Assembly: GCA_951406725.2 (NCBI GenBank)
Contig: OX597822.1
Coordinates: 75,888,001 to 75,952,000 of the forward strand
Length of the DNA: 64,000 bases
Direction: 5' to 3'
From: Octopus vulgaris
Taxonomy: Eukaryota
Shown: positions 844-50,580 of the stretch, piece by piece
Layout of the letters: the number at the start of each line of letters is the position of its first letter
Numbering within the stretch: the first letter of the stretch is position 1
The notes under the pieces: model-generated
Told to the model about the DNA's origin: nothing
The model's database searches: none
What the model saw: only the letters and a program-made list of their open reading frames with translations
Made by a program: the position numbers and the translations under genes

Positions 844-1046
844 GTTAATCCAAACATGAAAGCACAAAAAAAACACATCAACGCGAGGACGTGGAACAAA
901 TATAGTATTATTGGACGCTCAGGAAAGAAGGAAAGAAGGAGGGTTTAACGTTTCGAGCGGAGCTCTTCCTCGGAAACATAGGAGAAGGAAAGATCCAGAG
1001 AAGGGAAGACAGAGGAAAAAATCGCCAACGGTACACACGCGGTCAC
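844..1046 (-). mobile_element. Short PLE-like terminal fragment abutting (TA)n, carrying a hammerhead-like motif
   Basis: Starts right after a long (TA)n tract. Its first ~55 bp recur inverted at ~46582-46637. Contains the motif at 943-977. Confidence 0.55.
943..977 (-). ncRNA. Minimal type-I hammerhead-like motif (U4C core)
   Basis: Minus strand reads GTTT-CCGAGGA-A-GAGC-TCC-GCTC-GAA-ACGT-T-AAAC: stem I GTTT/AAAC, stem II GAGC/GCTC, palindromic stem III ACGT. Confidence 0.6.
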
Positions 1047-1480
1047 ATGTTTCTCACATATTTCAACTGCTAAAGGCAAATACACTGAAGTTACCGTGGC
1101 GAAAAAAAAATTCTCTCTTATGGTAAAAGGGTGTGAAAACAACCCGTTCTTTCAGTGTCGCCCTCTCTCGGGAAACTGAGACATCGTTGTTTCGAGTCTC
1201 TTGATTCGATCAGGCGATCTACTAGCGCAAATCAGTCAATGTGTTGGCTGATATTATATACAAAGCTATAAGCTTTGTCAGTTCGTTCAGGGTTGTCCCT
1301 CTCAGGTACATCTGATCGACAAGAGTCAACAAACTCGAAACATCGATGTCTCAGATTCCTGAAAAAGGGCGACATTGAACGATCGGGGTATTTTCACACC
1401 CTTTTACCATAAGAGAGAATTTATTCTTCACAGTAACTGCAGTGTGTTTGCGTTTAGCAGTTGAAATATGTGACAAACAT
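1047..1480. mobile_element. Fold-back element with ~165 bp inverted arms
   Basis: 1047-1213 is the diverged reverse complement of 1312-1480 (ATGTTTCTCACATATTTCAACTGCTAAA / TTTAGCAGTTGAAATATGTGACAAACAT). Spacer ~100 bp. Confidence 0.85.
1312..1354 (+). ncRNA. Hammerhead-like motif with U3-A8 and C4 core
   Basis: CTGA-TCGACAA-GAGT-CAACAA-ACTC-GAA-ACATCGATGT-C-TCAG: all three stems pair, stem III is a palindrome, cleavage triplet GUC. Confidence 0.6.
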
Positions 1481-1651
1481 ATTTCAACTAACCTAAATTG
1501 AGATTGTACGTAAACACTTCTTAGTGCATTTACTCCGATATATATATATATATGTATACACGCACACACAAACACACATACATACATACATACATACATA
1601 CATACATACATACATACATACATACATATATATACATACATACCTATATAT

Positions 1652-2055
1652 ATACTCTTTACTCTTTTACTCTTTTATTTGTTTCAGTCATTTGACTGCG
1701 GCCATGCTAGAGCATTGCCTTTAGTCGAGCAAATCGACCCCGGGACTTATTCTTTGTAAGCCCAGTACTTATTCTATCGGTCTCTTTTGCCGAACCGCAT
1801 AGTGTCGGGGACGTAAACACACCAGCATCGGTTGTCAAGCAATGCTAGGGGGACAAACACAGACAAACATATACACACACACATCTATATATATATATAC
1901 ATATATACGACAGGCTTCTTTCAGTTTCCGTCTACCAAATCCACTCACAAGGCTTTGGTCGGCCCGGGGCTATAGCAGAAGACACTTGCTCAAGATGCCA
2001 CGCAGTGGGATTGAACCCGGAACCATGTGGTTGGTTAGCAAGCTACTTACCACAC
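1652..2055 (-). mobile_element. Major tRNA-derived SINE (family A)
   Basis: tRNA-like head with B box (GGTTCAATCCC), internal (TA/TG) tract, conserved body, tail GCATGGCCGCAGTCAAATGACTGAAAC plus (AAAAGAGT)n. Confidence 0.9.
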
Positions 2056-2251
2056 AAAGTACGACTTATTCGCAATTAGAGTTGCTCGAAAACCAAGGTA
2101 CAACTGTAGAAGGTTAAATAAACTGGTTTTACAACACATAGGACTGTTATCCGTCAGGACGTCTTGGCATGCCCCACATCTACTAATATGTTCAAACCAT
2201 ACAATGCATAGGATAAAAGATAACGGATATTCCCGCATCATATTGACCCAT

Positions 2252-2448
2252 AGGACCAGTTTCCTGGTTTCTGTGGCGCATATATGCCTTTCTAGACGAG
2301 GCAGCAGTCCGTCACAGGATTAATCATCTTCGTTAACTGAGGGGTTATAGCAATGTAAAATGTAGTTTTTCGCGTCACCCGGTTCGTCAGTCGAACCCGC
2401 AGTCTTACGAGCATGAGTCCATCCCTCCAAACGGTATGGGAAGCCACG
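2252..2448 (-). mobile_element. Diverged tRNA-derived SINE
   Basis: Degenerate head and tail (GAAACCAGGAAACTGGTCCTATG) resemble the copy at 29368-29610. Confidence 0.55.
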
Positions 2449-2479
2449 CACCTCCACATATCACAATGCACGGACCATG

Positions 2480-46974: not shown

Positions 46975-47342
46975 TTATTTTATTCTTTTATTTGTTTTAG
47001 TCCTTTGACTGCGGCCATGCTAGAGCACCGCCTTTTAGTCGAATGACTCGATCCCAGGGCTTATTTCTTGTAAGCCTAGTACATATTCTATCGATTGCTT
47101 TTGCCGAACCGCTAAGTTATGGGGACATAAACACACCAACGCACAAACATCAGTGGGGGACAAACACAAAAACATATAAATAAATATTCACATATACGTC
47201 TGGATTCTTTCAGTTTCCCTCTACCAAATGCACTCCGTGGCACTAGTAGAAGACACTTGCCCAAGGTGCTATGCAGTGGAACTGAACCCGGAAGCATGCG
47301 GCTGGGAAGCAAGCTTCTTACCACACAGCCACTTCTGCGCCT
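46975..47342 (-). mobile_element. SINE family A
   Basis: Family tail, body and head. Confidence 0.9.
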
Positions 47343-49280
47343 ATTAAAGATATATATATATATATATATATATATATATATATATATATATATATATATA
47401 TATATATATATATATATATATATATATATACATACACGCGAATATTGACAATACAAGTTCACGTACAAATACACATATATGTGTTCTTTCTACGTATCTC
47501 CGTGTCTATGTGTGTGAGACGTATCTATGTATGTATGACAATATACCTGTTTGGGCATGGAAGTAAATATCTCTGCATAATATCATACTCATATCTCATC
47601 TCAATGGCTAATAGCTGTTTGGCAAAATCTGGAGATGGAAACATTAATAACGTGTATGTGAAAGCGTATGAACAAAAGAGAATGACTACGCCATTAACTC
47701 ATCAATTGTCCTTACAATATAAGCACATGTTGACCTACACATGTAGCTATACTTTTGCATGTAAGCATAGACATGTAATTAAGTAGGTATGCACATGCTT
47801 CCAGCTTTACTCGAAATGGCGTATGCACATGTGTTTGTATTAATATTCCTGCATCGTTTTATCTATATTTTTGTATGCTTATAGTTGTCTCTATGTGTGA
47901 CCTCCTCATGTAAAGTTTTCTGTGTGTATATCTGCATATTATACATATATATATACATACATATATAGAAACGTATATGATATTAGCCAATCGACCGTTT
48001 GAGAAACGTTCTCGGTGATAAATTACTATGCTCCGGCGTGAGCATCAGTAATGTGTAATTATGATCTCTTGGTGAGAGGATTACATGATCGTTCACGTAC
48101 GCTGGTGTAGTTTTTAGTTCAGCCTCTCATGCAGACCTTCGTTTTATTGAAAGCTATGCGAATGGAGAAGTACGTTGATTGCCTGTTTGTTAAATTGACT
48201 GGTATATATATATATCTGTGTGAATGTGTGTGTGTATAGGTATATATATATGTGTACACATAAATATATATATATATATATATATATACACAAATATACA
48301 TTCATATATATATATATATATATATATATATATATGTATGTATGTATGTATATATATGCGCATATATATCTATACATATGCATACAAATATATATATATA
48401 TATATATATATATATATATATGTATGTATGTATGTATATGTATATATATATATATATTATATATATATATATATATATATATATATATGCGTATATATAT
48501 ACATATGCATACATATATATATATGTGTGTGTGTCTCTGTATTTATGCAAGGACAAACACACACACACGGATACGCACATGTATACAAAGTAATAAAGTT
48601 TCTCAGTACAACATCGTGCTGGAATTAGAGGGCAATCATGTTTCTTTATGTGGGGACCCTCATGCCACCCGTTTCGCGGTTTGACTGAAACATCTGAAGT
48701 TTGCCCTCTACTACATATTATTTCTCAAAATCTCAATTGACTTGTGATACGCGCATATTTATACACTCACAGAAATACAGACATACGCGCGTACACACAC
48801 ACATACACGCACCCACACACATATACATATACATACATATATATACATCTTCAAACTCTGTTGATTGCCTTCTCTCGTTGATAGGTCGCTGGCAATAAAT
48901 AACGTGACAAACAGTTATAGTTATGAAATAAGTAAAGCCATTTTTTCGGTATGGAGTATATAAACAGATCCTTTACCTGTTTTTAGGGGTTTGGTCAAAA
49001 TGATTGAGACACTCCTGAAGAGTATCCAATAAGTTTCGATAATCGATTATATTTGCTCATCATTGTTTTTAATATACGGAAATACATTTATAACTGCCTT
49101 GTTAAAATATCTACGTCTTTACGTCTATATATATATATATATATATATATATATAATTTCAGTAAAAACAATTAAGACTCAAGTGAGTTCCAATGAATTC
49201 ACATGAATGCGGTACTTAACTTAGATGCACCAGAAATCTATATGGTATTAACCATAAAATAATGTGGGGTGATTATAAAC

Positions 49281-50346
49281 AAGAAAAAAGCAACAAGAAT
49301 GGATTAGTTGTTCAGTACAATTGTTTCATACGAAGAACAGCTTTATTAAAAGCTGCAAATATTGCAGCAAATACAAGTGTCCCGTATTCATCAGCCAAAA
49401 CACATATGAGTTTTCCAAACATCATGAAGTATCGAAGAGAGTTCTATGAAAAGCAAAGATAGATTGTAAGCAGACTTCAAAAGTTCTCTAATGATGCACA
49501 GTTTTATAAAAGGTTTTTAAATAACTTTGTTAGTTTCACAGAAAAGGTAAAGTCATCCATAATAATGCAGGTGTAATTTCCGGAGATATGAGGAGATATT
49601 TCATACTCAGAGAAGATGAATGTATCCATAATAATGTAGATGTAATTTTCTGATATATGAAAAGATGTTGATCACACTTCTATTCGTTTCACAAAACTAC
49701 TATGTTGGAAGAAGAGATTTACTATATTGGCTAAAAGAAGTCGCAAAAGACGTCAGTGAAGTAGAAACCGCCCAAATAAGGACATTATGGGACATTATGG
49801 GAGGAAGGTGTGTAAGTACACAACCTACAAAGTATAGATTATTTCTGTGGTGACAGAAAATCTAGGTCAGTGTTGCAGGAATCAGAGATTTATAATTTAT
49901 AAAAGAGAACATTACTTTTGACCATCATACAGCTATTAACTGCCACTCCTACAGAGTTAAAGGCAGGTATAAGAATACAAAGAGAACAAAAGAAAGTATT
50001 AAAGGGGTCAAAGGCTATCAGTAGAGGAAAATACATTAAGAGATTTAAGTGCAACACTAGAACAGGAGGTTAATTATTTATTTATTTATTTATTTATTTA
50101 TTTATTTATTTATTTATTATTGTTTCTATTTATACAAATGTTTATACATTGTAAGACAGACTTTAGGTCTATACCTAGAGGTCAATTAATTTCTATAGTA
50201 AAATGTGTGAGAGTATTGTCTATTCAAAATATAGTGAAAATCATAGTGAAAATTCTTTATATTATTATTTGCAGCTTTTAATAAAGCTGTTCTTCGTATG
50301 AAACAATTGTACTGAACAACTAATCCATTCTTGTTGTTTTTTTCTT
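49281..50346. mobile_element. Fold-back with near-perfect 80 bp inverted repeats
   Basis: 49281-49360 is the inverse of 50266-50346. (TA)n follows immediately on the right. Confidence 0.75.
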
Positions 50347-50489
50347 ATATATATATATATATATATATATATATATATATATATACCGAAGTAAACACAT
50401 AAATGTGAAACAAGGTGGAAAAAAGAATACTCAAATACCAGTGGTAGAGTAATATGCTTTATTTAAAGCAGCAGAAAATTTAACAGAAT

Positions 50490-50527
50490 CTGTTACTCTG
50501 AGTTTCTCGTTACCGTTCATCAGACAG
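50490..50527 (-). ncRNA. Minimal type-I hammerhead motif
   Basis: CTGT-CTGATGA-ACG-GTAA-CGA-GAA-ACTCAGAGT-A-ACAG. One mismatch at the base of stem II. Confidence 0.75.
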
Positions 50528-50542
50528 TTTTTGCTGCAAAAA

Positions 50543-50580
50543 CTGTCTGATGAACGGCAACGAGAAACTGAGAGTAACAG
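50543..50580 (+). ncRNA. Minimal type-I hammerhead motif
   Basis: CTGT-CTGATGA-ACG-GCAA-CGA-GAA-ACTGAGAGT-A-ACAG. Confidence 0.75.

Follow-up and report, generated by a model that had tools for sequence, protein, structure and literature searches.

Penelope-like elements (PLEs) have been described as carriers of minimal type-I hammerhead ribozymes with a palindromic stem III, which occur mostly as dispersed motifs from truncated elements, in many families per genome and partly as inverted pairs 100–700 bp apart (Cervera & De la Pena 2014, PMC4209133, on motifs of PLE pseudo-long terminal repeats). These traits, together with an extra nucleotide after A9 (here in families A, I, C and E), recur in Octopus vulgaris, of which we analysed a 64-kb stretch, C9:75,888,001–75,952,000, hereafter the window. 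Judged from its sequence, nine motifs from seven repeat families (A, B, C, E, F, G and I) are of minimal type-I hammerhead form, placed at the 3′ ends of PLEs and of related short repeats and with variant cores shared by whole families, and we consider it likely that they cut their own RNA, slowly and as dimers of two copies. The system as such is real and mostly known; what the octopus genome appears to add are well-supported new core variants.

The U3-A8 families of Schistosoma mansoni (~1,300 matches) were already reported in PMC4209133. Fig. S3 of that study (56 motifs) contains CUGANGA, two U3-A8 forms and one U3/G8 form only, unlike the octopus set with its C4, U6, G3-C8 and A3-U8 forms; their absence there is weak evidence, because the descriptor used fixed the core. 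PLEs of the Hydra clade, as described by Craig et al. (2021, PMC8557442), resemble the present elements in their (TA)n targets, inverted 5′-truncated arms, tails, DKT and CxCX5C motifs and in hammerheads whose stem III comprises 8–10 nt and in many cases has a 1-nt centre. Family G agrees with Hydra-2_Amil in stem I and almost completely in stem III, and an octopus Hydra element is already listed. The Hydra cores in File S2 of that study all begin CUGANGA, in contrast to families E and G, which have C4 in the majority of sampled copies. The main text of a 2026 octopus repeat annotation (PMC13282606) contains neither “hammerhead” nor “ribozyme”. PLE hammerheads, U3-A8 families, (TA)n targeting and dispersed and inverted stubs are thus published, while family-wide C4, U6, natural G3-C8, A3-U8 and a within-family swap were not found in a literature search that did not cover Lünse et al., Przybilski & Hammann 2007, figures and some supplements.

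Covariation of positions 3 and 8

A first-pass annotation of the window had listed ten hammerhead-like motifs, picked by eye, with complementary positions 3 and 8. All ten cores are present at or adjoining the places where it had put them, starting at 973(−), 1316(+), 5027(−), 27048(+), 27476(−), 28875(−), 42383(−), 45986(+), 50523(−) and 50547(+), and 3:8 is complementary in 10/10. The hammerhead layout holds for nine; the remaining motif, at 45974, has no stem I or II in register, matched only itself in a genome search and yielded no second copy in a later search. A relaxed descriptor, which requires only G5, A9, GAAA, stems I and II and a palindromic stem III with U as its last nucleotide, and leaves positions 3, 4, 6, 7, 8 and 17 free, recovers four of the ten (973, 1316, 5027 and 42383), compared to a mean of 0.21 and a maximum of 2 matches in 100 tile-wise dinucleotide shuffles of the window. 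The five others are damaged members of families whose majority sequences have the hammerhead layout: stem I is damaged in the copies at 27048 and 28875, stem II has lost 18 nt at 27476 and comprises only 2 bp at 50523 and 50547, the latter also with a stem III mismatch. Two further motifs of standard layout, at 5281(+), decayed, and 49394(−), had not been listed. No hammerhead was among the 150 of 660 Rfam matches listed for the window or in two local scans, and a general repeat search was dominated by microsatellites. Three of the motifs belong to family G, and family A is homologous to family I, so that the window contributes no more than two independent swaps at 3:8 (U-A in B, G-C in C).

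The pattern extends far beyond the window. A blind scan of 100 fixed-grid 10-kb stretches (1 Mb) gave 36 matches versus 1 in the reversed sequence and 6, 4, 4, 3 and 3 in five shuffles. Positions 3 and 8 form a Watson-Crick pair in 33/36 of these, versus 3/21 in the controls, and G17 occurs in none, versus 6/21, although the 36 fall into few families and are not independent. Clustering of relaxed matches (1.89 Mb) resulted in 31 multi-locus clusters, all with a Watson-Crick pair at 3:8 and with A, C or U, never G, at position 17. After nine duplicates had been merged by eye, 22 families remained (16 C-G, 4 U-A, 1 G-C and 1 A-U), so that all four Watson-Crick pairs are found in this genome; the 14 families that had not been baited are likewise all Watson-Crick (11 C-G, 3 U-A). 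Two scan matches, L287 (GUGGUCA) and L306, were not upheld across copies and were dropped.

Selection bias, which the first-pass annotation had itself conceded, would reduce the motifs to chance matches picked by eye. The unsupported 45974 motif is of this kind, and some noise passes the relaxed descriptor, as only 12/22 single-locus scan matches are Watson-Crick at 3:8. Given the enrichment over shuffles and the fixed position of the motifs in repeat families whose candidates number in the hundreds to thousands, chance is refuted for the other nine and as a general explanation has a practically negligible probability.

The strongest single evidence lies outside the window, in the A-U family K, which was collected genome-wide by a pattern with positions 3 and 8 left free (control: 0 matches). 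Its 59 copies comprise 44 A-U, 9 G-C, 2 G-U, 2 A-G, 1 A-C and 1 U-C combinations (Fisher p=7e-8 on the 56 A/G x U/C copies). Among 43 aligned copies, five with G-C are distinguished, across ~550 columns, only by positions 3 and 8 and by one column at a ragged edge. As copies share ancestry, the swap was probably a single event in a master copy, which to that extent counts against our reading, but it fell on precisely the two sites that pair. An outer stem I pair shows a compensatory G-C to C-G swap between families A and I. In the A/I clade, the majority sequences of three U6 subfamilies diverge at none of the structure or core sites (0/30), whereas 36/119 sites in the flanks have changed (p=2e-4), as have 2/6 free sites; here too a reservation is due, because the pyrimidine-rich, low-complexity flanks may mutate faster and inflate the contrast of 0/30 versus 36/119.

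These data bear on the possibility that the variants are unselected mutations hitch-hiking in successful masters, with the ribozyme decaying in these lineages. One master can indeed fix any change, most window copies carry lesions, and within the two large subfamilies mutation of the motif is almost as rapid as that of its flanks (0.024 vs 0.038 and 0.032 vs 0.047), as expected of inert insertions. Such a process is, however, strongly disfavoured, and we regard it as very improbable, in view of the paired 3:8 swaps in independent families, the A-U to G-C swap, which came with hardly any further diagnostic change, and the lack of any structure-site change among the U6 subfamilies. Since the 3:8 pair belongs to the catalytic core and its two positions change together, we infer selection on the active-site fold, which would operate in the master RNA that transposes. 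When a base pair of the active site changes by paired swaps, this is evolutionary evidence for the importance of the catalytic fold, and for 3:8 the evidence is unusually clean.

Core variants shared by whole families

Own-genome searches returned 848–5,120 first-look candidates for each of the seven families, and majority sequences were derived from alignments of such matches, the window copy being left out of the tallies. Besides families A and C (Table 1), family B has the cores UCGACAA (13/31) and UUGACAA (9), family E CCGAAGA (16/35), family F, which is old and rich in indels, CUGAUGA (12/32), family G CCGAYGA (28/36) and family I CUGUGGA (30/49), CUGUUGA (7) and CUGUCGA (3). All I-clade copies (67/67), those from the grid among them, have U6, while N7 varies (G35/U16/A9/C7). 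Only family F and a subfamily of G match the published forms CUGANGA or UUGANAA; the others deviate by C4 (A, E, G), U3-A8 combined with C4 (B), G3-C8 (C) or U6 (I). The family majorities do not revert to CUGANGA, and the variants CCGACGA, UCGACAA, GUGAACA, CCGAAGA, CCGAYGA and CUGUNGA are therefore, as the alignments indicate, family-wide and not copy-specific decay.

Top-match samples lean toward the variant of the query, hence less biased samples were also checked. In contigs from sequencing runs, U4 amounts to 21–31% of depth for family A (four runs) and 24–29% for B (two deep runs), which leaves C4 as the majority in both. C4 as a product of copy decay was rejected: C4-G5 is a CpG, decay would thus proceed from C4 to U4, and C4 predominates in A, B and E. 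The unbiased grid sample of 1 Mb contains ~17 core-bearing copies of A, 24 of the U6 clade, 11 of C, 9 of G, 4 of F and none of B or E; from these rough numbers A, I, C and G extrapolate to roughly tens of thousands of copies each. The expectation that a strict CUGANGA search would miss variants was borne out. The blind scan contained one CUGAAGA, three CUGACGA and two CUGAUGA rows, one of them a degenerate same-family copy, and with 5/36 matches counted as CUGANGA such searches miss most hammerheads in this genome.

The majority sequences of all seven families have the type I layout (stem I, 7-nt core, stem II, GAA, stem III, H17, stem I). Their 15.1–16.1 region is a palindrome of 4–10 nt, in E and G of 9 nt with a central mismatch, and would allow a dimeric stem III. 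An extra nucleotide after A9 is combined with a G10.1-C11.1 pair in A, I and C; the former is absent in B, F and G, the latter in E and G. Several families with a canonical core (F, L214, L146, L114, L062 and the 49394(−) motif) have a very long stem II (40–60 nt) and 8-nt stem III palindromes.

Several of these deviations have natural precedents: U3-A8, a viroid U4C, a slow A6C, a U10.1-U11.1 mismatch and a 2-bp stem II are named by Perreault et al. (2011, PMC3088659). They are described there as rare single examples in tertiary-stabilised ribozymes, whereas here variants mark whole high-copy families; A6U, G3-C8 and A3-U8 are unnamed in the text of that study, its figures aside. G3-C8, engineered in the Poseidon PAc hammerhead (Frangieh et al. 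2024, PMC11167929), is natural in family C and in part of family K. The U6 and C4 families offer matched natural weak alleles for testing.

Carrier elements and possible cleavage

The proposed link of the minimal type-I motifs to PLEs is supported, and its further specification as non-autonomous derivatives has to be divided. Families I, E, F and G are, to judge from their motifs, 5′-truncated 3′ ends of coding PLEs, of Hydra type in E, F and G and of Neptune type in I. Upstream of their hammerheads and in the same orientation lies an open reading frame (ORF) for a reverse transcriptase (RT) that bears a GIY-YIG endonuclease (EN) at its C terminus, as also in families J and K outside the window; copies elsewhere in the genome have varying 5′ ends and carry the hammerhead in sense orientation downstream of RT/GIY-YIG remnants. 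In family I the GIY-YIG remnant is typically ~700 nt upstream (10 loci). Families F, G and E run upstream into RT/EN remnants with DKT, CxCX5C and CxxC/CxH motifs, the last flanking the E and N residues of the EN, and 9/17 family G loci gave tblastn matches. The combination of DKT, CxCX5C linker and CxxC/CxH is described as the signature of the Hydra clade (PMC8557442). Its motifs were identified by visual inspection of broken frames in L173, L154, L381, L103 and L106, not each of them in each family, and Pfam GIY-YIG matches reached E-values of 0.014 and 0.0035 only, below the cut-off. The Neptune-type CX2-5CxxC linker and DKG are clear in family J; in the family I copy that was read the linker is interrupted by a stop, and Nematis shares this linker. 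A Naiad identity of the L298-type ORF was rejected, its EN being C-terminal with Hydra motifs.

Families J and K are coding Neptune-type elements of ~55–60% identity, so that U-A and A-U both occur among related elements. Family J (150 scored matches at 92–96% amino-acid identity, with open frames of up to 850 aa and the core UUGAAAA) corresponds to L312–L341, e.g. G000:C3:86388285 with the 850-aa frame, and appears as a young coding Neptune-type PLE; it is a candidate for biochemistry. In its U3-A8 hammerhead, stem II comprises 2 bp and N3 is preceded by an extra U.

For families A, B and C, the 1.6 kb upstream of 62, 33 and 59 copies, respectively, contained no ORF remnant in register, and these families may be non-autonomous. 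In family A the start is fixed, ~80 nt ahead of the core, and the element shares homology with the 3′ end of I, family C starts 10–25 nt before stem I, and the ~340-nt unit of family B is preceded by its own 3′ end in 13/33 copies, as a partial head-to-tail tandem. Copies of C (4849–5055) and G (50523/50547) often start 6–25 nt upstream of stem I, an inversion point that marks the front edge of the ribozyme and not the cut site. Altogether, 365 copies include 45 5′-to-5′ inverted pairs versus 2 direct pairs. Families G and F carry optional 3′ tails, which in PMC11167929 are explained by two RT start sites, and copies sit at (TA)n targets; inverted pairs, tails and truncation belong to the known PLE traits according to PMC8557442. 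Non-LTR retrozymes (bioRxiv 10.64898/2026.07.22.740005; PMC7229834) are, as described, likewise non-coding, hammerhead-bearing and PLE-related, and the family B unit may be compared with them. Unlike those, the octopus elements showed no tandem arrays with two complete hammerheads, and four of the seven families are stubs of coding elements; tandem retrozyme arrays were rejected, given the two direct pairs and partial tandems in B only.

Mechanistically, two same-strand hammerheads in a partial-tandem transcript would pair through the palindromic stem III and then cut. The product might be re-ligated to a circle, and reverse transcription would start ~45–150 nt downstream of the cut site and run through it. 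The C4 and U6 cores would presumably cut more slowly than CUGANGA, and the dispersed genomic copies are likely inert and decaying. Minimal PLE hammerheads are reported to cleave weakly as dimers (PMC4209133, PMC6765202), and by folding energies, calculated without tertiary terms, the double hammerhead is more favourable than two monomers in B, E, F and G. For the paired change itself, C3G/G8C partly restores cleavage in a PLE hammerhead (PMC11167929), and a pairwise mutation scan describes the G3-C8 swap as the sole rescue in the CUGA region (PMC9901934). The element 3′ ends lie ~45–150 nt past the predicted cut site and 5′ ends do not cluster there, which implies that the copied template spans the cut site and was uncut or re-ligated RNA. 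This fits both a circular intermediate and a dispensable cut; the idea that elements start at the cut site was rejected, as no pile-up of 5′ ends exists.

A number of observations weigh against cleavage as outlined. No family has a pile-up of 5′ ends at the predicted cut site. The double hammerhead is less stable than two monomers in A, I and C and equals the best dimer fold only in B, and direct tandem pairs are so rare (2 pairs among 365 copies) that cis-dimers would seldom be possible from these stubs. Unbiased samples retain U4 (5/9 grid copies of family G, against 4 with C4; 21–31% of depth for A), and the clade assignments come from visual reading of motifs and not from a phylogeny. As to the published biochemistry, no CUGA-region change except the G-C swap is described as active in the pairwise scan (PMC9901934), U4C strongly lowers in vitro activity, A6C has a kobs <0.1/min (PMC3088659), and hammerhead mutants left in vitro insertion by a PLE protein unaffected (PMC11167929).

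The main rival builds on such observations. In it, the hammerhead fold is kept as a non-catalytic signal for dimerisation or RT/endonuclease binding, and weak or dispensable cleavage let C4 and U6 become fixed. U6 is indeed fixed in a clade that, with ~24 copies in the 1-Mb sample, is among the two commonest, though A6 changes are damaging in vitro, and 5′ ends at the cut site are missing both here and, for RNA-seq ends, in Anolis (PMC11167929). In the same source a purified element is reported to have inserted in vitro without cutting, and Craig et al. consider that PLE ribozymes may be passengers (PMC8557442). A mere signal does not readily explain, however, why the pair that covaries belongs to the catalytically active conformation, why H17 varies between A, C and U but is never G in 31 clusters, and why G5, G8 or its partner, A9 and GAA stay fixed. 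We therefore judge the signal hypothesis unlikely, although it is the most serious alternative to slow cleavage by dimers.

A more far-reaching version of the cleavage reading is that all four 3:8 pairs plus C4 and U6 are fixed in PLEs of this genome and all cleave, the U6 lineage with its tens of thousands of copies cutting with a broken U-turn via dimer or protein help. We consider it possible but rather doubtful. On this reading the genome would amount to a naturally occurring mutation series of the hammerhead active site. If true, the hammerhead consensus would be widened, and PLEs would be selected for cleavage in vivo, against its dispensability in vitro.

Features of the window

The hammerhead-bearing copies and their surroundings are listed in Table 1; no PLE ORF remnant was found within the 64-kb window.

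Table 1. Repeat copies and hammerhead motifs of the window (position 1 is its first nucleotide)
Feature	Position	Strand	Remarks
Short family A element of ~210 nt with (TA)n end	844..1048	−	
Family A hammerhead	943–977	−	core CCGAGGA, stem III ACGU, H17=U at 947; family majority CCGACGA (C3-G8, C4), 27/40 copies
Family B inverted arm, 5′-truncated, starts within hammerhead, core absent	1047..1207	−	
Family B element, ~340-nt unit without known ORF	1213..1540	+	
Family B hammerhead	1310–1356	+	core UCGACAA (U3-A8, C4), 10-nt palindromic stem III, H17=C at 1350; U3-A8 in 23/25 copies
Family C short element, ~205 nt	4849..5055	−	
Family C hammerhead	4983–5035	−	core GUGAGCA, 7-bp stem I, H17=U at 4991; majority GUGAACA (G3-C8), 37/45 copies
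Decayed family A relative, core CCGACGA at 5281	5221..5409	+	4 homologous copies elsewhere
Family E inverted arm, decayed core at 26793	26756..26978	−	
Family E stub, putative 3′ end of Hydra-type PLE	26987..27171	+	
Family E hammerhead	27044–27085	+	core CCGAAGA (C4), 9-nt stem III with central mismatch, stem I damaged here
Family F stub, putative 3′ end of Hydra-type PLE, with 3′ tail	27232..27753	−	
Family F hammerhead	27412–27481	−	canonical CUGAUGA, long stem II with 18-nt deletion
Family F inverted arm, 3′ half of hammerhead only	27751..27821	+	
Family I stub, putative 3′ end of Neptune-type PLE	28755..28987	−	
Family I hammerhead	28844–28879	−	core CUGUGGA (U6 family-wide), stem I damaged here
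Family G long stub, putative 3′ untranslated region (UTR) of Hydra-type PLE	42317..43309	−	~920 nt upstream of core common to other copies
Family G hammerhead	42350–42387	−	core CCGAUGA (C4), GNRA-capped stem II
Inverted arm of family G 3′ UTR, ends before hammerhead	43848..44298	+	
CUGAAGA...GAAACGU, stems I/II not in register	45974..46012	+	single copy, unsupported as hammerhead
Hammerhead absent from the first list, core CUGAUGA at 49394	49309..49401	−	long stem II, 8-nt palindrome
Partial inverted arm of 49394 element	near 50266	+	
Family G stub with optional 75-nt 3′ tail	50386..50535	−	hammerhead 50490–50527, core CUGAUGA (U4 subfamily)
Family G inverted partner	50536..50613	+	hammerhead 50543–50580, core CUGAUGA

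Hammerhead-free 3′-end fragments of A-like and C-like elements are present at 46580–46636 (+) and 51236–51327 (+). The segment 30625–31277 is a 326-bp tandem dimer (96%), the minus strand of which has CUGAUGA; it contains no standard hammerhead and had no other copy in the sequence searched. At 63239–63344 (+) a full-length match to U6 snRNA (Rfam, 107.9 bits), with an altered but pairable 5′ hairpin, sits between simple repeats and SINE-like sequence, and both a gene and a retrocopy are possible. Finally, two copies of another repeat, 20361–20560 (−) and 21400–21529 (−) with cores at 20445 and 21487, have GAAA upstream of CUGANGA; this repeat has 21 matches in the sequence searched, 4 of them in the grid, and its N7 varies between A, G and U.

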